Of a stretch of 52,157 nucleotides of DNA, positions 3,005 through 37,400 are shown piece by piece. The notes beneath the pieces were generated by a model that saw nothing but the letters and a program-made list of their open reading frames with translations, was not told the origin of the DNA and ran no database searches. How positions within the stretch are numbered: position 1 is the stretch's first letter; each line of letters starts with the position of its first letter. The DNA lies in IMG/VR virus record IMGVR_UViG_3300027740_000010, positions 1 to 52,157 of that record, one strand, 5' to 3'. The DNA comes from a virus (Duplodnaviria > Caudoviricetes). Made by a program: the position numbers and the translations under genes.

Positions 3005-3226
3005 ATGGCAGGCATTATTAGATTCAATAACGACCTTATGTCATGGGCGCGTTGGGGTAAAGGGAGTCTTGACCTGAAAGTTCGGGCAGCCGCAGAGGCC
3101 GTGATGAGTTTCTGCGTGCTGCATGCGTGGGACAAAATGGTACATGTGCCTGACCGCTTGGAGCCGTTCGTTGACTTGTTAGAGCACGCTTGGTCAGACC
3201 GCAATGTTGGCAAAGCAGCCCAGTAA
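3005..3226 (+). CDS. Hypothetical protein
   Basis: AAGGGG RBS; packed ORF. Confidence 0.55.
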   Translation: MAGIIRFNNDLMSWARWGKGSLDLKVRAAAEAVMSFCVLHAWDKMVHVPDRLEPFVDLLEHAWSDRNVGKAAQ

Positions 3227-3272
3227 ATATTTAGTTCTACGAAATAGGACTTAAAAAGAAAGGTGGTAATGT

Positions 3273-3740
3273 ATGAGCTTAAACTATGACATTACAGGTA
3301 TTGAAAACGTGGACGAACTCAAGACGTTCGGTGTGTTTAGTGGGGATTCGTTCATGCCGAAACAAGACGGTGACTCGTTTGTACTCACACCGCAGTTGGA
3401 GTGCCTAATCTGGTTGTCGTTACTAACAGGCATTTCTAAGATCACAGAGCATAATTGGCAAGAGACATACATCCGTGTACATGCCATAGAAACAGTTGCC
3501 GGGGCGTATCGCAGGACATCTACTGGAGAGTCGGTGTACTACACCCCCGCAGAAGTAAAGCGCTGTATCGGGCTTAAAACTAACACTGAGATCCTAACTG
3601 CGGCTGCCTTTAACCACAGACTTGCCAGCATGGTGCGTAGACCTGCGTATGACCTGTTGTCAGCGTTTGACCAACTTGAGGAAAATAAAAATGACCAAGA
3701 TCAGGATGCCGTCGAGACAGAAACCAAAAGAACTGCCTGA
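3273..3740 (+). CDS. Hypothetical protein
   Basis: AAGGTGG RBS; 155 aa ORF. Confidence 0.7.
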   Translation: MSLNYDITGIENVDELKTFGVFSGDSFMPKQDGDSFVLTPQLECLIWLSLLTGISKITEHNWQETYIRVHAIETVAGAYRRTSTGESVYYTPAEVKRCIGLKTNTEILTAAAFNHRLASMVRRPAYDLLSAFDQLEENKNDQDQDAVETETKRTA

Positions 3741-3891
3741 CTGCACACGCTTCGTGCGTCACGAGTGGGAGTATGTAGGTGAGCGCAGCGGGGTGCTACA
3801 AGGCAAACCGTACCATAAAGGGTTGTATAAATGTGCGTGCGGGGTAGCTAAAGAGGGACTGCCGATGTGGAACCATAGGAGCTATAAATGA
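3691..3891 (+). CDS. Hypothetical small Cys/His protein
   Basis: GAGG RBS, ATG at 3691; stop overlaps the next ATG (ATGA). Confidence 0.55.
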   Translation: MTKIRMPSRQKPKELPDCTRFVRHEWEYVGERSGVLQGKPYHKGLYKCACGVAKEGLPMWNHRSYK

Positions 3892-4772
3892 AAGAACAGT
3901 ACAAGGAAATAAACTTTAAAGGCGACTCGTTGTTGCTGATTGATGTAACGAACAGGATAGTAGATGAGTATGTGGGACAAGGCTACCGCCTCACAGTGCG
4001 CCAGCTGTATTACCAGCTAGTAGCGAGAGCTGTTATCGAAAACACTGAGCGCAGTTACAAGCGCATCACTGGACTCGTCAATGACGCTCGCATGGCAGGT
4101 CTTGTAGACTGGGACGCTATTGAAGACCGTACCCGCGAGTTCATTCGCAAAGGACGATGGGAGTCAGGCGCACAGATTCTGCGTACTTGTGTCAACTCGT
4201 TTCACATGGACATGTGGGAAAATCAACAGACTCGTGTGTTCTGTATTGTAGAAAAAGAAGCCTTAGCCGGTGTGCTTGAGTCCGTGTGCGATAACCTAGA
4301 CATTCCGTTACTGGCTGCGCGTGGATACCCAAGCAGCACGGTGCTACGCGAGTTTGTGGAACGCGACATTGTGCCGTTACATGGACAACAGGACATCCAT
4401 ATACTTCATCTAGGCGACCATGACCCTAGCGGTATTGACATGACACGCGACCTCACGGAGCGCATTGAGCTATTCGCTGGTGTGGCGTCTAATGTGACAC
4501 TGCAACGCATTGCTCTAACAATGGAACAGATTGACGAGCAGAAGCCCCCACCAAACCCTGCTAAATCCACGGACTCTCGCTTCTTGGATTACCGTAAAAA
4601 GTTTGGTAGCCAGAGTTGGGAGCTTGATGCGCTTCAGCCGAGGTATTTGGCAGAGCTGGTCAGGCGCAACGCTGAAGTATTCATTGACTTTGACGCATGG
4701 GATGATCGTGTAGCTCAGATCGAAGAAATCAAAGTCCGTATTGCCGATTTAGCCAAGGAGCTATAAATGAAA
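3877..4772 (+). repeat. 17-bp direct repeat AGGAGCTATAAATGAAA at 3877-3893 and 4756-4772
   Basis: Two exact copies read directly; they bracket the TOPRIM gene. Confidence 0.85.
3888..4766 (+). CDS. TOPRIM-domain protein (Topo VI-A/Spo11-like)
   Basis: LTVRQLYYQLV; IVEKEAL; RGYPS; LHLGDHDPSG (TOPRIM DxD); WELDAL. Confidence 0.75.
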   Translation: MKEQYKEINFKGDSLLLIDVTNRIVDEYVGQGYRLTVRQLYYQLVARAVIENTERSYKRITGLVNDARMAGLVDWDAIEDRTREFIRKGRWESGAQILRTCVNSFHMDMWENQQTRVFCIVEKEALAGVLESVCDNLDIPLLAARGYPSSTVLREFVERDIVPLHGQQDIHILHLGDHDPSGIDMTRDLTERIELFAGVASNVTLQRIALTMEQIDEQKPPPNPAKSTDSRFLDYRKKFGSQSWELDALQPRYLAELVRRNAEVFIDFDAWDDRVAQIEEIKVRIADLAKEL

Positions 4773-4949
4773 CTACCCAGATTTGGATGGGCATTAGGGT
4801 TTGAAGCTGGAGAGTTGAACGATTTTTCAAAGCTGTCACCCCCAGACCCTGATTTGGTAACCCGTAATGCTGAGCGTCTTGCATCTGTCAAAGCTACGAT
4901 GGGTGACAAATACTTACTTGCAAAACCGATTGAAAGGAAACAGTCATGA
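4767..4949 (+). CDS. Hypothetical protein
   Basis: AAGGAG RBS; abuts the previous stop. Confidence 0.6.
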   Translation: MKLPRFGWALGFEAGELNDFSKLSPPDPDLVTRNAERLASVKATMGDKYLLAKPIERKQS

Positions 4950-5854: not shown

Positions 5855-6049
5855 ATGAGTAATTACACCCAAGAAACACTGGTAACATTTATGAGTGCGT
5901 ATGACTACGGAGAGCCAGCATCAACCGAGTGGCATGCCAGTATGCGAGAAGGTGCAGCAGACTTCATCGAAGCTTACGGGCTGGTACCCTCCGAGGCTAA
6001 AATCAGGCTCCTTGTAAACGATTACATAAAAGAAACGGACCAATCATGA
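5855..6049 (+). CDS. Hypothetical protein
   Basis: AGGAG RBS. Confidence 0.6.
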   Translation: MSNYTQETLVTFMSAYDYGEPASTEWHASMREGAADFIEAYGLVPSEAKIRLLVNDYIKETDQS

Positions 6050-6228
6050 AAACAATATTTAAGATTGTAGCAGGCATTATCGGCGGCGCTTTTTTCGGCA
6101 TCGGTTATATTTTTGGGCTGTTGTTAGTACCATTTATTGAGGGTGCGGAAACAGGTATTGACCACGCTGATGAGTTGATCGACTATTTGTTCGACATCGA
6201 GTACGAAGACGACGAGACTACAAAATAA
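6046..6228 (+). CDS. Small membrane protein
   Basis: N-terminal hydrophobic helix, acidic tail; ATGA overlap. Confidence 0.6.
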   Translation: MKTIFKIVAGIIGGAFFGIGYIFGLLLVPFIEGAETGIDHADELIDYLFDIEYEDDETTK

Positions 6229-6273
6229 TACTTCTTTCAAGATTAAAAGAGAACACAACTACAGGGTAAAAAC

Positions 6274-6519
6274 ATGGACTATTCAGACGTTAAAAACGTA
6301 ACCGCGCGGAAGCAACACAAATGCATGAATTGTGGTGAAAAAATACTCATGGGTGAAGCTTACAACAAATGGACAACGTTTAATTGTGGCGATGTTGGAA
6401 TAAATAAAATGCACATTGAGTGCTATGAAGATTTGAGCGGCGACGGCGAGTTTGAATACTCTTTATATGATGGTGAAAGACCATCGAAGCGCAGCCTTGG
6501 AGACGAACATGGAACGTAA
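6274..6519 (+). CDS. Zn-ribbon-like hypothetical protein
   Basis: ARKQHKCMNCGEKI...MHIEC. Confidence 0.65.
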   Translation: MDYSDVKNVTARKQHKCMNCGEKILMGEAYNKWTTFNCGDVGINKMHIECYEDLSGDGEFEYSLYDGERPSKRSLGDEHGT

Positions 6520-6835
6520 ACTGCTGTATATTGTTGTGAAGTACAAGGACATGCTCAAGTACATGACAGAAGACGAGCAGGTCCGGTTTATCGAACTGGT
6601 TAAAAAAGCTGACGCCGGAAGGGATGCAGACGGATGCTACGACGACGACGAACTGCTTGCCGAGTGCATGAGCGTGCTGGAGTACGCGACGTACCACGAC
6701 GGGCGCTACAGACAAGACCAGAACTATGAGGAGTTCCAGCAGCCAGCGCAGAGGTTGGTGGGGCGACTGGCAAAGCGATTGCAGCGCAAGGCATACGATG
6801 GCTTGGAGATATTAAATGCTAACTGCACTAGATGA
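6509..6835 (+). CDS. Hypothetical protein
   Basis: GGAG RBS; ATG at 6509. Confidence 0.55.
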   Translation: MERKLLYIVVKYKDMLKYMTEDEQVRFIELVKKADAGRDADGCYDDDELLAECMSVLEYATYHDGRYRQDQNYEEFQQPAQRLVGRLAKRLQRKAYDGLEILNANCTR

Positions 6836-7259
6836 AGCAACTTACGGCAACGAACAGGCAGAACGGGAACTGCGGAATATGCGCGGGTTGCTGTTGTGGG
6901 CGCTATACCATCACCAAGGAAGATCATCCACTATTGGGCAGCCAATCCGAAAAGCGCTTGGAATCGGTGAATATGCGGCTATGACACCTGTACAGATAAA
7001 GGAAGCGCAAATTGCAGGCGCTGACTTCAACAAAGGAGAAAACGATGGCATACACGGAAAAGAACAACGGGCCCTTCAAGCCAAACATCCGCGCGACAAC
7101 CCGCAGGCGCTGGCACGGCTGCGCCTGCGGAATAACCCGGACAACAAGCCAACCGGCGCATTCACTGGACGCTGCCCACACTGCGGTAGCGACAACCTAT
7201 GGGACGACAACCTGATATACGGCTGCAATAGCTGCGGCGCGATGCTGGGCGGGAACTAG
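6816..7259 (+). CDS. Hypothetical protein with C-terminal CxxC...CxxC Zn finger (possible fusion of two genes)
   Basis: GGAG RBS; CPHCGSDNLW...CNSCG; internal out-of-frame RBS plus ATG at 7045. Confidence 0.55.
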   Translation: MLTALDEATYGNEQAERELRNMRGLLLWALYHHQGRSSTIGQPIRKALGIGEYAAMTPVQIKEAQIAGADFNKGENDGIHGKEQRALQAKHPRDNPQALARLRLRNNPDNKPTGAFTGRCPHCGSDNLWDDNLIYGCNSCGAMLGGN

Positions 7260-7261
7260 GC

Positions 7262-7284
7262 GCCGAACGTTTGACGTAAGGCGC
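7262..7284 (-). mobile_element. Truncated attC-like remnant (L'-spacer-R')
   Basis: - strand GCGCCTTACG-TCAAAC-GTTCGGC; the R''/L'' half is absent. Confidence 0.4.
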
Positions 7285-7301
7285 AACCAAAGGAGATGAA
7301 C

Positions 7302-7421
7302 ATGCAAGGCTATGACCCAAGAATGAAGTGCCTAACGCCTGAGTTAAGCCGCGCCGGTAGGCGTCGGCTGGAAGCGATAGTTAGAAGCCTGCGGTCGACC
7401 GGAGAAAAACAGGAAAAATGA
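7302..7421 (+). CDS. 39-aa peptide read through the attC site, coupled to the MTase start
   Basis: AAGGAG RBS; MQGYDPRMKCLTPELSRAGRRRLEAIVRSLRSTGEKQEK; TGA overlaps the MTase ATG (ATGA). Confidence 0.5.
   Translation: MQGYDPRMKCLTPELSRAGRRRLEAIVRSLRSTGEKQEK
7330..7386 (-). mobile_element. Integron attC recombination site (attC-1)
   Basis: - strand TTCTAAC-TATCG-CTTCCAGC-CGACGCCTACCGGCGCG-GCTTAAC-TCAGGC-GTTAGGC: R''/5 nt/L''/loop/L'/6 nt/R' architecture, very like aadA-type attC sites as recalled. Confidence 0.8.
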
Positions 7422-8113
7422 AGACGACAACGATAAAGAACTGCACGCTGTACCTCGCCGATTATCGCGACGTGCTGCCGATGCTCGGGAAGATTACCGC
7501 CGTGGTGGCTGACCCGCCATACGGCAACGACTACCGGCAGAAGCGCAGCCGCGACAAGCTGGTGCGGCCCGACATGGAACACGCGCCGATTGTGGGCAAC
7601 GCCGAACCATTTGACCCGGCCGCACTACTGACGCTGGCGCCTACCGTGGTGCTGTGGGGCGCGAACTACTACGCCGACAAGCTGCCGGCAAACGGCAAGT
7701 GGCTGGTGTGGGACAAGCGCGAAAACACGACGCCCGACGATGGCGCGGACGTGGAGCTGGCCTGGACGAACCTGCGCGGCGTGCCGCGCATGCACAGGCA
7801 GTTGTGGCGCGGCATTTGCCGGCGCGGCGAAGAAAACATAAGCCGTGGCCAGCGGAAGCTGCACCCGAACCAGAAGCCGGCGGCACTGATGGACTGGTGC
7901 CTGCAACAAGCCGGACTTACCGAGGCCGACACCGTGCTTGATACGCACATGGGCAGCGGAACCACGGGCCTTGTGTGCCTGCGGCGCGGGATACCGTTCG
8001 TGGGGTGCGAGATTGACCCGGTGCATTACGCGACAGCGGTTGAGCGGCTGCAGCAAGAGGCTTCTAACGATGTAATTCAGGGGGCTGAGCCGCTTTTGGC
8101 GAAGCTCCCCTGA
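7418..8113 (+). CDS. DNA N6-adenine/N4-cytosine methyltransferase, beta class
   Basis: VADPPYG (motif IV) precedes HPNQKP and VLDTHMGSGTTG (motif I variant), then GCEID; visibly GC-rich. Confidence 0.92.
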   Translation: MKTTTIKNCTLYLADYRDVLPMLGKITAVVADPPYGNDYRQKRSRDKLVRPDMEHAPIVGNAEPFDPAALLTLAPTVVLWGANYYADKLPANGKWLVWDKRENTTPDDGADVELAWTNLRGVPRMHRQLWRGICRRGEENISRGQRKLHPNQKPAALMDWCLQQAGLTEADTVLDTHMGSGTTGLVCLRRGIPFVGCEIDPVHYATAVERLQQEASNDVIQGAEPLLAKLP

Positions 8114-8128
8114 AATGATGGGTTCGGC
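8062..8128 (-). mobile_element. Integron attC recombination site (attC-2)
   Basis: - strand GCCGAAC-CCATC-ATTTCAGG-...-CCTGAAT-TACATC-GTTAGAA; imperfect palindrome with canonical 5/6-nt spacers; overlaps the MTase 3' end. Confidence 0.78.
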
Positions 8129-8181
8129 GGCAACCATTAAGCATTATTTAACAGTTGGAGGATTTTGAAAGGAACATTAAA

Positions 8182-8433
8182 ATGCAAGAAGTTCTATATA
8201 TGATTTGGATACTCGAAGTACAACTAATCGGGCTGTTTGTTTTGTTATGGATACTTGGGATTGTATGGGAGTGGGTGGATAATAAGTGGAACCCTTACCT
8301 CCCGTTTTGTGACATAGACCCGCGATGTCATATAGCATTTGTGTGGGACAAGGATGGGAACGGCTGGATAGGCGACCATCTGGTATTACCTAACGTTGGG
8401 CAAAACAAATGGCTTGAGATTAGAGGAGACTAG
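8182..8433 (+). CDS. Small membrane protein
   Basis: AAGGA RBS; N-terminal TM helix. Confidence 0.55.
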   Translation: MQEVLYMIWILEVQLIGLFVLLWILGIVWEWVDNKWNPYLPFCDIDPRCHIAFVWDKDGNGWIGDHLVLPNVGQNKWLEIRGD

Positions 8434-8434
8434 T

Positions 8435-8686
8435 ATGAGCATTGAAGAAGAAGCAAAAGCGCAATTACACACATACGAAAAAGTATCTAAGACGGTGGCT
8501 AATATGCTAATAGACGAAATCACATCGATACGTCAGCAACTCGCACTGGCTGTTGCCGCGCTTGACCACATAGGTAACAAAGATGACAAAGATGACAGGT
8601 TTGCACGGGTTATCGCAAACGAAACTCGGATGCAGATTGCGTTGTTAGAGGTGGAAGCTTCGAGTGAGACTGCCAAATGCGTTTAG
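8435..8686 (+). CDS. Hypothetical coiled-coil protein
   Basis: GAGGAG RBS; ATG at 8435. Confidence 0.6.
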   Translation: MSIEEEAKAQLHTYEKVSKTVANMLIDEITSIRQQLALAVAALDHIGNKDDKDDRFARVIANETRMQIALLEVEASSETAKCV

Positions 8687-9729
8687 TAGCGATGGATTTA
8701 GAAACGCCGCAGGATGTACCAGAGTATGGGCTACAACCGTGGCGAGCAAAGACTGGCGAGGCTACTATTAAGTCGGTAGCGCTCTGGTCAGCAGACGGTG
8801 TGTTTAAGAGCGCAAAAGCTATGCCGTCTAAAAAGTATTTTGCAGAGGTGCTTGCTATCTGTGCCGAGCAGAAGTACGTTATATGTGGCTGGAACTTGCT
8901 GTTCGACATCGCATGGTTGATGGCAATAGGGCTAGAGCAAGAAGTAAAAGCCTGTACTTGGATTGACGGCATGCTAGTATTGAAACGTGTAGATGGCTGG
9001 CGCGACAAAGAGTATGGTGGCATAGGCTTTGGCCTGAAAGAAACAGTTGCTGACGTTTGGCCTGAGCTAGAAGAGTGGAGCCTAGGCGAAGATGTGACTA
9101 AAGTACCTCAAACTGAAGAGGAGTGGGGACGATTACTAACGTACAATTTGCTGGACTCGCAATACACTTGCCAGCTGACTGAGTTTTTCTGGAACCAACT
9201 AAGTCCTGAAGAACGCAAGGGTGCAAAAATTGAGATGTTGTGTTTGCCTGACATTGCGCTGTCATACATCAATGGCATAACGATTAACGTGGCTGCGCTG
9301 GATGAGTTGCAAGCATCAGTTACTGAGTCGCTTGCAGAGAACAGTGTCATCTTTGGCGCAGACCCCAAGATAGTAGCTTCGCCTGCCAAGTTAGGGCAGT
9401 TGTTGTTTGAAGAGTGGGGTTTCACACCAATCAAGAAGACACCAGCAGGTAAGCCTGCCACGGATAAAGAGACGTTGTTGAAGCTGGCGATTCAGCACCC
9501 TGACGACCCTCGCTTTGGTGCGTTGATGGCACTGCGTAAATGTAAAACACGCCAGTCAAAATTTATTGATGGGGTGCGTAAGTCGTTGGCGTACCATGGT
9601 GGGGACGTTACATACCCCAAGCCTGCAATTGCAGGCACGTACACCGGCCGGCTAACATATTCATCCAAGCAGAATGTTAAAGTCCCTCGCAAGGGCAAAA
9701 AGGAGACGGTAGATGAAAGCGACGAGTAA
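8677..9729 (+). CDS. polA: DNA polymerase family A, N-terminal part (3'-5' exonuclease + thumb)
   Basis: ExoI AMDLET, ExoII GWNLLFD, ExoIII YNLLD; SPAKLGQLLF; KKTPAGKPATDKETL; ends just after GTYTGRLTYSS. Confidence 0.9.
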   Translation: MRLVAMDLETPQDVPEYGLQPWRAKTGEATIKSVALWSADGVFKSAKAMPSKKYFAEVLAICAEQKYVICGWNLLFDIAWLMAIGLEQEVKACTWIDGMLVLKRVDGWRDKEYGGIGFGLKETVADVWPELEEWSLGEDVTKVPQTEEEWGRLLTYNLLDSQYTCQLTEFFWNQLSPEERKGAKIEMLCLPDIALSYINGITINVAALDELQASVTESLAENSVIFGADPKIVASPAKLGQLLFEEWGFTPIKKTPAGKPATDKETLLKLAIQHPDDPRFGALMALRKCKTRQSKFIDGVRKSLAYHGGDVTYPKPAIAGTYTGRLTYSSKQNVKVPRKGKKETVDESDE

Positions 9730-9775: not shown

Positions 9776-9976
9776 ATGACACAGATTCTAACAGCTGGAC
9801 TTAGAGAAGCTTTACGTGCTGCGGCAGAGTTAGACCAAGAAGTTAAACAACGCGGATCATCAGAAGTTCGCACTGCGGCAATTGACTCGGTGATTGCGCG
9901 TGCCCACAAGTTGCATCCGAAGTCTTTTTACAGTGATGTATTCGACGCTAAAGGTAGATGGGTAGGTAAGCAGTAA
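9776..9976 (+). CDS. Hypothetical protein (between polA halves)
   Basis: AGGAG RBS. Confidence 0.65.
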   Translation: MTQILTAGLREALRAAAELDQEVKQRGSSEVRTAAIDSVIARAHKLHPKSFYSDVFDAKGRWVGKQ

Positions 9977-10248
9977 TGGGCGATGTTGTTAGTATTGCAC
10001 CTGTGCAGTCCACGGCTACAGGCGAGGCAGTGTGTATGCACTGCAAGCACGAGTGGGTGGCTGTTGCACCTACCGGCACGGCATGGCTGGACTGTCCAGA
10101 GTGCGGTACACAGAAAGGCGGGTTTAAATTCCCGTTTGGTGTAGCAGTCGGAGACATGCTGCTTGTTTGTGATTGTGGAAACGATATACTTTTTGTCACG
10201 CCAGCAGGGTGTTTGTGCCCTAACTGTGGCGAACTCTGGGAGGATTGA
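9976..10248 (+). CDS. Cys-rich Zn-finger protein (between polA halves)
   Basis: CMHC, CPECG, CDCG and CPNCG motifs; TAATG coupling. Confidence 0.75.
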   Translation: MGDVVSIAPVQSTATGEAVCMHCKHEWVAVAPTGTAWLDCPECGTQKGGFKFPFGVAVGDMLLVCDCGNDILFVTPAGCLCPNCGELWED

Positions 10249-10438: not shown

Positions 10439-10713
10439 TTGAAAAGAGCTGGAAAACTATTGTTTTGCTGGGCAAGTACGATATGGTATATGAGTGTCCT
10501 GTGTGTCAATGCAGGTATTTAGAGCAGGCAGACGGGTATCTGCCAAATATTCATGACCACACCTGTAACTGCGGTTTTCATGAGGTACTTGAAGTCGCAT
10601 ACCAACGACTCACCTCTGAAGGTGACTGGGTTGCCGTGAACCCTGAAGACATTCCACACTACAAATCTCGCGGACAGCTTATCCGTAACCTTTATGCAGG
10701 GGAGCCTTACTGA
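10435..10713 (+). CDS. Hypothetical Cys-containing protein (between polA halves)
   Basis: ATGA overlap upstream; TGATG overlap with polA-C downstream. Confidence 0.6.
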   Translation: MIEKSWKTIVLLGKYDMVYECPVCQCRYLEQADGYLPNIHDHTCNCGFHEVLEVAYQRLTSEGDWVAVNPEDIPHYKSRGQLIRNLYAGEPY

Positions 10714-12518
10714 TGGAACTACCTACAGGAATCGCTTTGCACCAATGGGAGCGTGGCAAGGCGGCACGTAACATCTTGACGGCACCTGACGGTTATTTGC
10801 TTGCAGAGTTCGATGCTAGCGGTCAGGAAATGCGCTTGATGGCTGACATCTCGCAGGACTCTACAATGCTTTCACTGTTCGAGCAAGGCATTGACGCTCA
10901 CGCTTACATGGGCGCGTCAATTGAACGACTTGACTGGCACTGGGTGCATGACGAACAGGATAATGACCCCAAGGCGAAAGCTGCTCGGTATCTAGGGAAA
11001 TTCTGCATTGCAGAAGGAGAGCTTGTATTGACTGACAGGGGACTTGTACCTATCGAGCAAGTTCTGCTTGCAGATAGAGTATGGGATGGGATAGAATGGG
11101 TGACACATACAGGGGCAGTGTACCAAGGAGAAAAACATGTCATCACCTATCAAGGACTTACCGCCACAGAAGACCATCGAGTGTATTTGGAAGACGGAAC
11201 AAACTGCTGGTTTTCAGAAGCCTCCGAAAAGAACTATTGTCTCGCTAAAACAGGAGATGGTAGGACTGCGATTCGGGTGGTGGGAGATCGCTGGTATAGC
11301 GGTAACTATAAAGAACACAGAGACGTATCTGGACTGTGTATGCATGAAATGTCAGCGTCCGTACCAAGTAGCCAAGATGAATTTGTTGTCAGGGAAAAGT
11401 GTCCAGTGCAAGAGCTGTGCAATGAAACAACGTCACGAAAAACAGGGTCACGCACTCATTGCAAACCACACCGAATACTTGGTACAAAAAAGATGCAACG
11501 CAATGGCTCAACGCTGCCAAAACAAAACAGACAAATCGTTCAAAAATTATGGTGCGCGAGGAGTCCAATTCAATTTCGAGTCAGTGGCGGAAGCTATTGC
11601 GTATGTTCTGGAGACACTGCCACATGCGACGTATCAAGGACTGGACATAGACCGAATAGACAACAACGGTCATTACGAGGCAGGCAACTTAAGATTAGTA
11701 TCTCGAAAGGACAATCTAAACAACACGCGGCGAAACACGTTCATAGAGTGGCAAGAGCACTTTATTCCAAGAGTACATGTGTACCATGTACTAAGATCGT
11801 TATATCCAGAAGTGCTTTACACGGAATTAACGGTTCAAAGCCTTGTTTCCAAGGGGCTAGGACTGGAGGAAATTCGAGACAGATACCACAGCCTACGGAG
11901 TTGCAAACCAAAAGGGTGTGGGACATTACCAATGCCGGACCGAGGCATTGCTATACTGTATCTGGATTCTTAGTTTTCAATAGCAATCTTAGTCTCCAGT
12001 ATAGAATTGGCGTAGAGACCATGATGGTGCGTGCGTTAACTGGATATGACTTGCAGCTGACACAGCCGCGTGCTGCCCACATAAAGCACACGTACCTATC
12101 GACATATCCCGGCATTCCAGTATACTGGAATACAGCTATACAGAAAGCAAGAGCGCTAGGCTATGCCGAAACAAAAGGTCATCGCCGCTTAGCCACTCCG
12201 AACATGTCAGACTGGAAGCAGCAACAAACTGCGATCAACCTACCGGTGCAAGGGACGGGAGCTGACATGAAAGAACTTGCTATTGCCGTGTGCAGACCGT
12301 TGTTCGACAACAGCTGTATTTACGCATGGGATTTGCATGACGCGCTGTTCATCTATATCAAGGACGACGCGAAAGCAAAAGGTAAAGTGCTACTGATTCA
12401 AGACGTACTTAACAACCTGCCATATCAAAAGGCATGGGGCTGGACACCATCAGTAGGGTTACCGTGGGATTGTAAATTTGGCAAAACATGGGGAACATTA
12501 AAAGGAGTAGAGAAATGA
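10713..12518 (+). CDS. polA: DNA polymerase family A, C-terminal part (palm/fingers), intein-containing
   Basis: GGGGAG RBS; motif A LAEFDASGQEMR; motif B RYLGKF|SNLSLQY interrupted by the intein; NLPVQGTGAD; motif C LHDAL. Confidence 0.92.
   Translation: MELPTGIALHQWERGKAARNILTAPDGYLLAEFDASGQEMRLMADISQDSTMLSLFEQGIDAHAYMGASIERLDWHWVHDEQDNDPKAKAARYLGKFCIAEGELVLTDRGLVPIEQVLLADRVWDGIEWVTHTGAVYQGEKHVITYQGLTATEDHRVYLEDGTNCWFSEASEKNYCLAKTGDGRTAIRVVGDRWYSGNYKEHRDVSGLCMHEMSASVPSSQDEFVVREKCPVQELCNETTSRKTGSRTHCKPHRILGTKKMQRNGSTLPKQNRQIVQKLWCARSPIQFRVSGGSYCVCSGDTATCDVSRTGHRPNRQQRSLRGRQLKISISKGQSKQHAAKHVHRVARALYSKSTCVPCTKIVISRSALHGINGSKPCFQGARTGGNSRQIPQPTELQTKRVWDITNAGPRHCYTVSGFLVFNSNLSLQYRIGVETMMVRALTGYDLQLTQPRAAHIKHTYLSTYPGIPVYWNTAIQKARALGYAETKGHRRLATPNMSDWKQQQTAINLPVQGTGADMKELAIAVCRPLFDNSCIYAWDLHDALFIYIKDDAKAKGKVLLIQDVLNNLPYQKAWGWTPSVGLPWDCKFGKTWGTLKGVEK
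11004..11981 (+). mobile_element. Intein (326 aa) in PolA motif B
   Basis: Begins CIAEGELVLTDRGLVPIEQV; block B TATEDHRV; ends RVWDITNAGPRHCYTVSGFLVFN; +1 Ser; removing it restores RYLGKFSNLSLQY. Confidence 0.92.
11137..11973 (+). CDS. HNH-family homing endonuclease nested in the +1 frame inside the intein
   Basis: AAGGAG 6 nt upstream of ATG 11137; GLRFGWW..CVCMKC..LLSGKSVQCKSC; MAQRCQN..YGARGV; DIDRIDNNGHYEAGNLRLVSRKDNLNNTRRN. Confidence 0.88.
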   Translation: MSSPIKDLPPQKTIECIWKTEQTAGFQKPPKRTIVSLKQEMVGLRFGWWEIAGIAVTIKNTETYLDCVCMKCQRPYQVAKMNLLSGKSVQCKSCAMKQRHEKQGHALIANHTEYLVQKRCNAMAQRCQNKTDKSFKNYGARGVQFNFESVAEAIAYVLETLPHATYQGLDIDRIDNNGHYEAGNLRLVSRKDNLNNTRRNTFIEWQEHFIPRVHVYHVLRSLYPEVLYTELTVQSLVSKGLGLEEIRDRYHSLRSCKPKGCGTLPMPDRGIAILYLDS

Positions 12519-34400: not shown

Positions 34401-37400
34401 GCGACTGGATGTTTTTCTCTAACAACCTCTGTGCCTTACCTAGGTTACTTGAAGTAGTGCCCTGTACGCCCCCTGTCAAAAACGCTTTGATGTTAGTTGC
34501 CAGTGTCGGGTTTTTACGTGCGAGGTTATCCAGTTGTTGCCCTATTTCAGTGTCAGCAGTGATGTAGCCTTCAGCGTTAAAACCTTCAATCAAGCTGCTG
34601 TCTTGGTAGAGTTTAAGCCCATGCATCTGTGCCACGCGGTCAAGTGCCTCTGTGTCAGTGCGCAACAGTTCATCTGTCACACGCAGAATTTCAGACAGCG
34701 CAGAGTCTTTGGTAGCGCTAAGGCCTAACAACTCCCGAATGGATGCAACAAAACGATTCCACAACGTCTGTGTGGAGGTGTAAGGCACTGAGTCCATCAG
34801 TGCCTGCATGTCCCTGTCGGTCATCGTCCACGCTACAAGTTCGTGGAGGTCATGGAACGCATTGTTTTCTGATCGTGCCCAACTTTGCTCAATGCGTGTT
34901 AGCGTAGATGTGTCACCGTTAGCGTAAGCCGCATTAACTCTGGTGTTAATATGTTTCGCCACGGTTGCAAATACATCTGACAAGTCCTGTACACTCTGAT
35001 ACTCTTTTGATGTTACAGGTGCCCTGCGACCTAGCTCAATTGCCGTCTGCGTCGCTGCGTGTACAAGCTCGTGAAGCAATACAAGGTCATTCAAGCCAGA
35101 CTTGGCATTTCCAACACCCCCTACCCATATCTCTGTCTTTGAACCTGTTTTGGTAAGCGCAAAACGACTTAGCCCTGAAGCTCCGGGTACAAGCGGGGAC
35201 GGTATACCGGGGACCGCTATGTTAAACGAAAACTGCATCCCTTGCTTTTCAAGCGCGTTTAGCCGCTGCTCTACTCTATGCGCAATCGCAACATACGCCG
35301 CATTTGGTGTAGTGTTGGCGATATGGCGAGCCACTTGCTGTACAGTCTTGCCTTCTAACTCCGTCTGCCGTGCATACGCCTTGGCGACGTATGCTTCCAC
35401 TTCAGCACGAGTCGTGTTTGAGTCAAGTTTGAACTTGCCACTAAGGTCCACTGTTCTACTTGCTTTTCTAACCTGCTGCGGTGTAGGCGCTACTTCTTGT
35501 TTTTGCGTTTTGGCTTGTGTTTCTGTTGCGGCTTGGCTGGCGGCTGGTGTAACATTTTGCTCTCCTTTAACAACATCGTTTAATGAAACCCCTGTAACTG
35601 CGGTATGTAGCTTATCCAATGTCTCGAAACTTGTCTGGGTTTTAGGGTTTTCGGCTTTTGCTACAAGCATGTCACTCACTGCCTGCGTGTCTGTAACATC
35701 AATGTTCTTGGTCATCGTGCGCACCAAGGCAGCAGCCACTTTGTCAGTTTTGCCAATCTCGGAGTACACTTTTGCCATCTTAGCTGCGTTGTCCTCCACT
35801 GGTGCAACCACTGGAGTTACCGGCACCGGTGCTACGACTTCAGCCGCTGTCACAGGCGCAGCTCGTGCGACACGCTCTGCCGCAATCTGGCTAAACGCTT
35901 GATCTAGTGGGCTAACAGGGGGAGGTACTACTGGCTCCGTAACTGGCGCAGTTGGCAACCCGACACGTTGTAATTCTTGCCCAAGTGCTGTTGTTGGCTC
36001 TGCTGTCACGGGCGCAGGGGCTGTGAATGTACGTGCTGGCGCACCCTCTTGGAGCAGGTCTAGCTGCGCTTCTTTGCTACGCGCTACCTGTGCTGTGGCT
36101 TGTTCAAACTCGGCACCTCGGCTCGCTGCTGCTTCTCTGGCGTCCGCTGCTTCAAACAAATCTCGCGTCAGCGTGTCACGGGCAGCCGGATTGCTCTCAA
36201 GTTCTTTCTCGTACTTGAGGTCTTGGAAATACGCCATATCACCACGAACTTGGTGAAGCTTGTCCAGCACCTTTTGACGCTGTACATCCAGTGCTTTGGT
36301 CTGTGATGTTTGCTCTTTGGCACTGAGTGGCTGCAACGCCTCGCTTAGTTTTGCTTTATTGGCGGCAAGCGCGTCCAGTTCGAGTTTAAACTTCGCTGGA
36401 GTATCCACTTCCAGTTTCTGTTTTGCCTTAGCCAGTTTTGTTGTTTCGGCTTTAACACGCGCCTGTACTACAGGGTCTGTAGGCGCTGCGGCTAACCGTA
36501 GCATCGCTACATCAACACGCCCTTGCTGTGACTCTACATGCGCCTGCTCTTTTTGTACTGTGTCTGCCATTTTGGTATTAACGGTAGCAATCAGCTCATC
36601 CACAGCTTTTATCTGAGGCATTACTTTAAGAGCTGATACTGGCGCACCGTCTTCAAGCACTTTAATCGCGTCGTTAACCTCTGCAAATGAAGCTGTAGGC
36701 TGCACTGCACCTGTAACTCCATAGCGGGCAACACGTTTATCTCCTACAGTCTCTGCATTCTCACTAGCCCACCTAACATACTCTTGAGCTTGTTGAGGGT
36801 TTGTGCCTTCAATAGTTTTCTGTGTGCCTTCTGGCAACGCCTTAAACTCGTCGCTAGTCTTAAGCTTGGCAAGCTCGGCGTTAACTGCCTTGTTTTCAGC
36901 TGATTGCCGTCCACCACCTGCCACAGCACCGAACAGCAATGAGCCTGCAAAGGCACTGGCTGCGTTGTCGATGTCTTCCTGCAAGGACTCTTTGTTTAAA
37001 ATGTCCTGATTTGCTGCCCAACGACTGACTTCGTTCTGCGGTACTTCTTCAAGCGCTTCAGCCGCAGCAATACTAACGGCTTTCTTGGCATATCCAGCTA
37101 TCGTCTTCATAACGGTAGGCGCTACATTCTTAACTGTTTCACCTGCGGCGGCTGCTACAGCTCTGTCAGCTGCATACTTAGCCACGACTTCTTTTCCAAC
37201 TGCGGCGGCTGTTTGCTCTGCCGCGCCACTCAGCACTTTTCTGATCGCCCCTTGAACACCGAACTGCTCAATCGCTGCGTTTACCAGCCCACCTGCTACC
37301 TGTTTAAGGGGGTCTTTGACACCCTCGGCTTCTTGCCGTAAACCAACTTCACCTATCGTAGCTGGAGCCACAGCTGCTGCACCGCCAAGATACGCCCCAA

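Follow-up and report, generated by a model that had tools for sequence, protein, structure and literature searches.

A methyltransferase gene inverted in an integron-type cassette between two attC sites of a phage record

The stretch of DNA analysed here (the window) is the whole of a 52,157-bp IMG/VR virus record, IMGVR_UViG_3300027740_000010, whose completeness is estimated at 84%. It carries the gene of an orphan DNA methyltransferase between two attC sites, the sites at which integron gene cassettes recombine, and an earlier description made from the letters alone (the sequence-only reading) had taken gene and sites for an integron cassette whose gene is inverted. The open reading frame (ORF) matches Pfam PF01555 (N6_N4_Mtase) with 59.8 bits (cut-off 26.7), and in its translation the DPPY motif stands near the N-terminus and the S-adenosylmethionine motif GSGTTG follows later. 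The nearest solved relatives include DpnA, MboIIA and CcrM (E 1e-9 to 2e-6); membership of the CcrM equivalog (NCBIfam NF050803) was rejected, the score being 46.9 bits against a cut-off of 830. The gene is on the plus strand, in the direction of the phage early genes, and the unit that holds most of it has a GC content of 0.635, compared with 0.484 in the window; the sequence-only reading had already noted the direction of the gene and its GC-richness.

The cassette unit and its attC sites

A search of the cassette region in Rfam gave nothing relevant. Since Rfam had no attC test, a covariance model (R1) was used instead, which consists of ten aligned attC sites from annotated clinical class 1 and class 3 integrons on plasmids and models the R''/R' and L''/L' pairs. 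The whole 52-kb window was scanned on both strands with the filters off; the E-values are approximate, because the calibration was shortened. The two best matches are the two places that had been credited with full attC architecture, and both are on the minus strand: site 1 with 34.5 bits (E 2.1e-6) and site 2 with the score given in table 1 (E 0.0028). Both align over all 71 positions of the model and form the imperfect palindrome R''-L''-loop-L'-R' with AAC/GTT cores, and both show the asymmetry by which the bottom strand is recognised, in that one spacer has 5 nt and the other 6 nt and the extrahelical bases belong to the L'' half of the top strand. On the plus strand site 1 reaches only 10.8 bits, for a partial match. 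In a control scan of 85 kb of plasmid DNA, the held-out attCs of orfF and dfrA12 scored 40 and 36 bits, the long sites of GES-1 and aac(3)-Ib scored 25 and 21 bits, each partial or mis-bounded, and the 127-nt attC of IMP-1 was not recovered; below about 21 bits there were ten reverse-strand echoes of true attCs (13-21 bits) and one place that is no attC (14.3 bits). The third match in the window (14.6 bits, E 0.23) is at 34877-34951 on the plus strand, inside the gene of a 2127-aa protein resembling a virion RNA polymerase, and is probably due to chance.

The identity of site 1 is also visible in its sequence. Read on the minus strand, it matches at least 5000 plasmid records by blastn (best E 2e-7), and these matches fall at the attC that follows qacL, qacF or aadA, in the same direction as those genes. 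It aligns base for base with the class 1 qacL and qacF attCs, with common stretches AGCCGAC..GGCGCGGCTTAACTCAGGCGTTAG. The 60-bp attCs of qacL, qacF and aadA share with site 1 the R'' box (TCTAAC), AGCCGAC, GGCGCGGCTTAAC, TCAGGCGTTAG, the 5- and 6-nt spacers and both extrahelical positions, whereas site 1 has 57 nt, a shorter loop and one mismatch in the L box, and is situated upstream of the gene with opposite polarity. Unlike a class 1 integron, the window locus is without intI1, attI or the 3' conserved segment. When folded as single-stranded DNA and compared with shuffled sequences, site 1 has a z value of -2.3 and site 2 of -3.0 to -3.6. In architecture both sites are genuine integron-type attCs.

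It could be argued that the two hairpins are regulatory or processing elements of the phage, or short homology linkers for phage recombinases, whose likeness to attC is incidental or secondary and involves no integron integrase (IntI). Both sites are indeed intergenic or at a gene end, on the transcribed strand, with stable folds, and phage early regions are notoriously mosaic. However, neither site matches the intrinsic-terminator pattern on the plus strand, the homology of site 1 to integron attCs goes beyond shape, and the bulged bases, the 5- and 6-nt spacers and the AAC/GTT cores suit an IntI substrate. Moreover, two contigs that received the same unit (L026 and L027, see below) lack any homology in their flanks on which a homology-dependent recombinase could act. 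We consider this explanation very improbable.

Two further places resemble attC sites or parts of them. At 8389-8401 of the window, inside ORF 8155-8433, there is an AAC|GTT palindrome similar to R boxes (CCTAACGTTGGGC), where R1 gives 8.5 bits for the R boxes only. An intergenic site resembling site 2, with 41 bits in R1, is located at 5997-6063 of locus L017 on the Shewanella decolorationis plasmid NZ_CP076856.1; it adjoins (200 bp) the gene of a 443-aa 'site-specific integrase' on this conjugative plasmid, in a context that is not obviously an integron, and it may represent an isolated attC or an integron of unusual type.

The crossover points, AA|C on the plus strand and G|TT on the minus strand, are read at 7335|7336 and 8067|8068, which gives the 732-bp unit that had been delimited by the sequence-only reading (table 1). 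In a canonical cassette the gene has the direction of the attC top strand and is followed by the attC; here the gene is on the plus strand, the attC top strand is on the minus strand and the cassette's own attC is upstream of the gene, so the cassette is inverted. The final six bases of site 2 (TTAGAA, 8067-8062) are the opening bases of the methyltransferase cassette. The last 15 codons of the methyltransferase ORF are outside the unit, codons 218-231 and the stop being inside site 2, and in a circular form the ORF would end two codons past the junction (AAC GCC TGA).

Table 1. Features of the cassette locus. Positions are those of the window.
Feature	Position	Strand	Description
Cassette unit	7336-8067		732 bp: attC, 31-nt leader with ribosome-binding site, 650 nt of methyltransferase gene
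Methyltransferase ORF	7418-8113	+	231 aa; orphan beta-class N6-adenine/N4-cytosine DNA methyltransferase; on attC bottom strand
attC site 1	7330-7386	-	Own attC of the methyltransferase cassette; 57 nt
Site 1 elements		-	R'' TTCTAAC, 5-nt spacer, L''/L' with two extrahelical bases, 6-nt spacer TCAGGC, R' GTTAGGC
attC site 2	8062-8128	-	R1 22.1 bits
Site 2 elements		-	R'' GCCGAAC, spacer CCATC, L'' ATT-T-CAGGGG, L' CCCCTGAAT, spacer TACATC, R' GTTAGAA
Extended R'' box	7380-7390	+ (reading)	GTTAGAAGCCT; one arm of 11-bp terminal complementarity
Extended R' box	8058-8068	+ (reading)	AGGCTTCTAAC; other arm; codes methyltransferase residues E-A-S-N
Partner of the site 2 R'' end	7261-7268		CGCCGAAC; complementary without mismatch over 8 bp to GTTCGGCG, 8122-8129
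Remnant of neighbouring small cassette	7268-7335		68 bp; attC stem-loop missing
41-codon ORF	7296-7421	+	Crosses site 1, overlaps methyltransferase start (ATGA); absent in contig L002; probably not a gene
Zinc-ribbon ORF	6816-7259	+	147 aa, C-terminal zinc ribbon; in GC-rich island

The perfect complementarity that had been claimed for the two ends of the unit is present at 11 of 11 positions when the letters are read directly, and it extends to a 14-nt inverted repeat with 93% complementarity. On its own the 11-bp inverted repeat is unremarkable: the window holds 35 perfect 11-mer inverted pairs at most 1 kb apart, compared with about 15 in first-order Markov simulations. The significance of the ends becomes clear when, in the 17 loci that contain both of them (the window included), the extended R'' box beside the leader is compared with the corresponding 11 nt at the end of the gene. 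Four co-varying end types are found, GTTAGAAGCCT/AGGCTTCTAAC, GTTGGGGGAC/GTCCCCCAAC, GTTAGCCGGCT/AGCCGGCTAAC and GTTGGAGGAC/GTCCTCTAAC, with the core letters AGAAGCC/GGCTTCT, GGGGGAC/GTCCCCC, AGCCGGC/GCCGGCT and GGAGGAC/GTCCTCT, respectively. Fifteen of the 17 loci have no fewer than 9 complementary positions among the 11; the exceptions are L036, where the R1 match is shifted by 1 nt, and L040, where the homologue is 66% identical and does not align at the gene end. The partner of R'' is formed by the last methyltransferase codons, which change in step (EASN, ESPN, EPAN, ESSN), and these compensatory changes keep the ends paired, as had been expected of the R'' and R' boxes of a circular cassette. 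Since the two ends meet only in the excised circle, their covariation is the strongest sequence evidence for a functioning, or recently functioning, cassette. That repeat and hairpins are mere coincidences of GC-rich DNA might be suggested by the simulations, in which 12.5% of the 1-kb regions (7200-8200) contain at least one perfect 11-mer inverted pair; this idea, to which we give practically no weight, is already refuted by the E-values of R1, by the homology with known attCs, by a unit that recurs with identical ends and by the end covariation.

Recurrence of the unit and polarity of the arrays

Close homologues of the methyltransferase were found in nine viral contigs, one bacterial genome and about 25 metagenome contigs. 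In three contigs, L002, L026 and L027, homology to the window is confined to 7329/7331-8069/8072, so that sequences sharing the gene lose their likeness exactly at the AAC/GTT cores, the very breakpoints on which the sequence-only reading depended. L026 and L027 are 99.865% identical over 740 bp, which comprise a 733-bp unit and a few consensus bases; they have nothing else in common, and their homology breaks at AA|C on both sides. Altogether the 732/733-bp unit occurs in four contexts (the window and L025; L002; L026; L027 and L043) and, like an integron gene cassette, is a discrete unit that has G|TT bounds and stands in different surroundings.

In L026 and L027 the unit is solitary, with an attC upstream of the gene and none on its 3' side, and the flanks read G|TTA on the minus strand. 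A solitary unit without a downstream attC fits insertion at a secondary site, and the flanks fit GWT sites. IntI is known to insert cassettes at genomic secondary sites with the sequence GWT, called attG (Loot et al., bioRxiv 10.1101/2022.09.11.507474). The insertions described there and those in L026 and L027 are alike in the single cassette, the non-attC flanks, the G|TT junction and the GWT consensus, whereas the former were obtained experimentally in E. coli chromosomes and the latter are found in phage-like contigs, where the event is reconstructed from sequence. In L027 the methyltransferase ORF (6001-6927) runs about 90 codons beyond the cassette end and has 308 aa in all; the linear read-through past the unit adds 15 codons in the window and 7 in L002. 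It looks as if the L027 cassette had been inserted in, or ahead of, another reading frame.

The solitary copies also decide the orientation of the unit. Because attCs are nearly palindromic, two layouts fit the 11-bp repeat equally. A layout with the attC top strand on the plus strand (unit 7381-8122, with site 2 as its own downstream attC) agrees with the repeat and with the GC-rich island equally well; it is ruled out by L026 and L027, which share the upstream attC and are without a downstream one, and by the R1 polarity, which is unambiguous. The junctions of these two contigs therefore mean that the unit carries its attC upstream of its gene and that the inverted layout, as first proposed, is correct.

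An upstream attC is common among the homologues. Not counting the duplicates L030 and L033, a close homologue preceded by 100 nt or more of sequence is present in 27 contigs, and in 18 of these an attC match on the minus strand is located just upstream of the methyltransferase. Over all homologue loci, 84 of the 88 R1 matches are on the strand opposite the methyltransferase, and arrays of seven attCs in 3 kb (L046), seven (L028) and eight (L034) occur. Genes that can be named are on the methyltransferase strand in 15 of 15 cases in these loci. Six of them are the methyltransferase itself in as many contigs (in L003 and L004 by homology only, without a Pfam scan; the other 13 genes were named by Pfam); the remainder are five N6_N4 or MT-A70 methyltransferases, two DHH phosphoesterases, a Tad2-like protein and a protein similar to FGE-sulfatase. 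Two of the 15, the second methyltransferase of L002 and the FGE-like ORF, are beyond the outermost attC match. The unnamed cassette ORFs are less clear: a GC-phase strand test, which is unreliable, gives 19 on the plus strand, 13 on the minus strand and 15 weak cases, and an open-frame test of 47 intervals finds an open frame on plus only in 12, on minus only in 2, on both in 22 and on neither in 11. One of the two 'minus only' intervals carries a Pfam MT-A70 gene on the plus strand.

Two arrays give an impression of the cargo. In the viral contig L009 (486-2087), three minus-strand attC matches bound two cassette intervals, the first with a second N6_N4 methyltransferase, the second with a 91-aa unnamed ORF and an 84-aa protein similar to Tad2, which counters the Thoeris defence (80.7 bits in Pfam); a copy of the window-type methyltransferase is situated just upstream of the first attC match, and all genes are opposite the attC top strand. 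In the 36-kb metagenome contig L028 (1763-6573), an array of at least seven attC matches contains four successive methyltransferase genes (one of the window family, one MT-A70 and two N6_N4, the last two in one interval), with a DHH/DHHA1 phosphoesterase just upstream of the array and the FGE-sulfatase-like ORF further upstream. The contigs themselves are diverse. L005 has a lambda-type portal gene, and L002 is temperate-looking, with a phage integrase (not an integron integrase) and an excisionase-like protein. L002 also has a direct duplication just upstream of its attC array (3178-4906, copies about 1.1 kb apart); the ORFs 3244-3804 and 4121-4906 have a long identical C-terminal sequence in common.

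The left flank and the phage record

On the minus strand the window array reads site 2, the methyltransferase cassette with site 1, and the remnant of a further small cassette (from 7335 to 7268). The remnant ends in a fused R''-R', GCCGAAC|GTTTGAC on the plus strand (7262-7275) and GTCAAAC|GTTCGGC on the minus strand, as if its attC hairpin had been lost; folded attCs are prone to deletion by replication slippage (Loot et al., bioRxiv 10.1101/2022.09.11.507474). The bases just past the remnant (minus strand TTCGGCG) form the 8-bp complement to the R'' box of site 2, a match that was spotted post hoc. Excision of 7268-8067 at both AA|C points would leave site 2 closed, directly after the stop codon of the zinc-ribbon ORF. 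This re-closure is read as the trace of a cassette insertion into a resident attC, which may have taken place in this phage or in a predecessor.

The cassette's left edge is a hot spot of variation. L025, which belongs to the same phage lineage, is 99.56% identical to window positions 7322-9371, and the part left of 7322 is a complete mini-cassette of another kind, with an attC of its own and a different ORF. The check for variation was made in assembled contigs from four sequencing runs, and assembly drops rare forms. In run X1, which probably represents the source sample, contigs break inside site 1 at 7339-7368, where a short contig gives an alternative continuation. In run X3, from another study, one contig follows the left flank of the window to 7322 and then diverges, while a second one joins the L025-type flank to site 1; the X3 relative is unlike the window over the whole of 7323-9352. 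One contig of run X4 has 431 extra letters at 7322. In the window the junction at 7322 has no AAC/GTT core, therefore ordinary deletion or mosaic exchange also seems to shape the locus.

The record itself is that of a phage that is lytic-looking. It encodes a helicase, a primase/helicase, a major head protein, a head-tail adaptor and a split family-A DNA polymerase; the 2127-aa protein is similar to phrog_2206 (N4-type virion RNA polymerase, E 5e-13) over a short match of 146 residues only and is without a Pfam match. A search of INPHARED gave no near match to the window, and a search of IMG/VR with the N-terminal fragment of the polymerase gave no relative. The sole relatives in IMG/VR, L023 and L024, are distant (53-65% protein identity, early genes not in common) and contain no matches to the attC model, and no related phage with an unoccupied cassette site was found in the INPHARED and IMG/VR comparison. 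The polymerase is spread over two plus-strand ORFs, 8677-9729 and 10713-12518, with small ORFs between them at 9776-10248. L023 and L024 match the second ORF only at residues 2-98 and 424-600, stretches that are contiguous in these relatives, and the window ORF therefore has an insert of about 325 aa (residues ~99-423). This insert, which matches phrog_26005 at residues 122-163, could be an intein or a homing-endonuclease domain.

Origin and movement of the cassette

Two attCs 675 bp apart in a record in which no integron integrase was found make the locus a cluster of attC sites lacking an integron integrase (CALIN). It is not a complete integron, with intI and attI beside the array: as the sequence-only reading had noted, no integrase is in view, neither a tyrosine (PF00589) nor a serine (PF00239) recombinase having been found in the 84%-complete record. 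The other contigs examined (for long metagenome contigs, 6 kb on either side) likewise show no integron integrase, and because of this absence an IntI of the host, acting during infection, is the inferred agent. We consider it probable that 7336-8067 is an integron-type cassette, placed beside a second attC in a recombinase-free phage record and moved by a host IntI.

Several points weigh against this interpretation. First, the record being only 84% complete, a recombinase could lie in the part that is missing. Second, site 2 has a modest score in R1, and its plasmid homologue is unconvincing, a weak match with E 1e-3. Third, the cassette is not the sole form of the gene: nine of the 27 contigs have no upstream attC match, in four of these nine (L006, L007, L008 and L010) and in the Comamonas locus the gene is translationally coupled in ordinary phage operons, and the one close homologue found in the genome-collection search, in Comamonas odontotermitis, has no attC. 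Fourth, no contig joining 7335 to 8068, nor a circle junction, is present in the assembled contigs of the four runs. Finally, the GC-rich island (~6600-8128, GC 0.59) exceeds the cassette, and the L025, X3 and X4 variants break 14 nt outside the crossover.

The last two observations bear on the explanation that the locus is a passive relic, that is, that the whole GC-rich block with the cassette and both attCs, derived from another phage or from a bacterial array, entered by general or illegitimate recombination and the attCs are now idle and decaying. The island starts about 700 bp left of the cassette and takes in the zinc-ribbon ORF as well as the 3' portion of ORF 6452-6835, and neither ORF has a PHROG match; the R1 scan detected no attC upstream of the zinc-ribbon ORF, at the left edge, and an acquisition en bloc is possible. 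The deleted attC of the adjacent remnant, the variants that break at 7322 and not at AA|C, and the X3 relative that differs across the entire segment 7323-9352 agree with this explanation, and for some phage CALINs Qi et al. (Front Microbiol 2023, PMC9892861) propose off-target homologous or illegitimate recombination. On the other hand, both junctions of the unit in the window are exactly at attC crossover points, removal of 7268-8067 would leave site 2 with a perfect 8-bp R stem, which resembles an insertion into a resident attC, and the unit has moved precisely into two non-attC sites elsewhere, therefore the cassette has recently been active somewhere. The 14 nt beyond the crossover could be an R' extension common to sister cassettes, or they could stem from ordinary deletion. 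A passive relic is in our view an unlikely account of the locus, yet a more serious one than phage hairpins or chance.

If a host IntI moved the cassette, the events can be pictured as follows. In the excised circle the attC would be located between the 3' end of the gene and its 5' leader, and the ends would pair as an 11-bp R''/R' stem. The circle would open at the R' box beside the 3' end of the gene; the attC would therefore come to stand upstream of the gene in the linear form, and the ORF would read across the junction. By IntI-type recombination at G|TT the unit could move into another attC, as in the window and L002, or enter G|TT sites that are not part of an attC, as in L026 and L027, with the enzyme probably supplied by the host during infection. 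The methyltransferase is co-oriented with the early genes and is presumably transcribed from phage promoters, and its product presumably methylates phage DNA and so protects it from host restriction.

A phage-borne CALIN with a methyltransferase is a known kind of element, because such CALINs have been published by Qi, Rajabal, Ghaly, Tetu and Gillings (PMC9892861). They describe 17 CALINs in phages, with five methyltransferases, N6_N4_Mtase included, among the cassette cargo, for which anti-restriction is proposed, and IntI1 recombined five of six attC sites from virulent phages. Those CALINs and the window are alike in having at least two attCs, a phage of virulent type, no integrase and N6_N4_Mtase cargo, and there, as here, a cassette pool tapped against host defence is proposed. 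Compared with what that paper describes, the present case differs in that the gene is on the attC bottom strand, that the same cassette can be followed from one unrelated phage contig to another, its junctions being exact and its ends co-varying, that solitary non-attC insertions occur and that an attC is near the clinical aadA/qac type. An R1 scan of Polaribacter phage P12002L, one of the CALIN phages of Qi et al., gave no match, and the sites of that study and those of the window are therefore not close relatives. This miss and that of IMP-1 mean that R1 is blind to distant attC types. In the literature we found no description of inverted phage cassettes, the supplementary tables of Qi et al. 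being outside the scope of the search. What appears to be new is that the genes are consistently on the attC bottom strand, that one cassette occurs in unrelated phage contigs, including solitary insertions, and that its ends co-vary; arrays dominated by methyltransferases and other candidate counter-defence genes (Tad2-like, DHH) appear to be new as well.

Many toxin-antitoxin cassettes of sedentary chromosomal integrons are inverted. Cassettes of such integrons with promoters of their own, e.g. toxin-antitoxin cassettes (Richard et al., Sci Adv 2024, PMC13108822), are likewise independent of the Pc promoter; here, in contrast to the cassettes described there, a phage is the carrier, a methyltransferase or counter-defence gene is the cargo, and the inversion appears to extend to whole arrays. 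The methyltransferase can also be compared with the orphan methyltransferases of phages (Murphy et al. 2013, 2014, via Qi et al.), which are solitary, have no restriction partner and are found in the phage early region, as it is. The difference is that here the gene is part of an attC-bounded mobile unit, whereas its homologues outside cassettes (L006-L008, L010 and L021) represent the ordinary form.

What does the cassette mean for the phages that carry it? Integrons are known as the means by which bacteria capture genes, and recent work has shown that anti-phage defence systems are stored in their cassettes. It is possible, and we put it forward only tentatively, that phages of GC-rich soil and sediment bacteria keep a pool of counter-defence cassettes in attC arrays of reverse polarity, which host integron integrases swap between unrelated phages through these arrays and through bare G|TT sites. 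The cargo of such a pool would be up to four methyltransferases in a row, the Tad2-like anti-Thoeris protein, DHH phosphoesterases and many small unnamed proteins. IntI is known to recombine folded attC bottom strands at G|TT, and excision is reported to be higher when the bottom strand is on the lagging-strand template. If the pool exists, its reversed polarity would mean that in early operons with high transcription the non-template strand is the recombinogenic one.

The locus offers an unusually clean test case, with a 732-bp unit, defined junctions, sister copies in unrelated genomes, co-varying ends and a canonical aadA-like attC, which should be a substrate for IntI1. That the genes are consistently inverted bears on the choice of strand and on cassette orientation outside the integron platform, and the related methyltransferase genes with and without attC may bear on the origin of cassettes. 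If phages carry counter-defence arrays that use a host recombinase, the integron machinery would serve both sides of the arms race: the pool would mirror the bacterial integrons in which anti-phage defence cassettes are stored, and phages would also be vehicles for cassette traffic.

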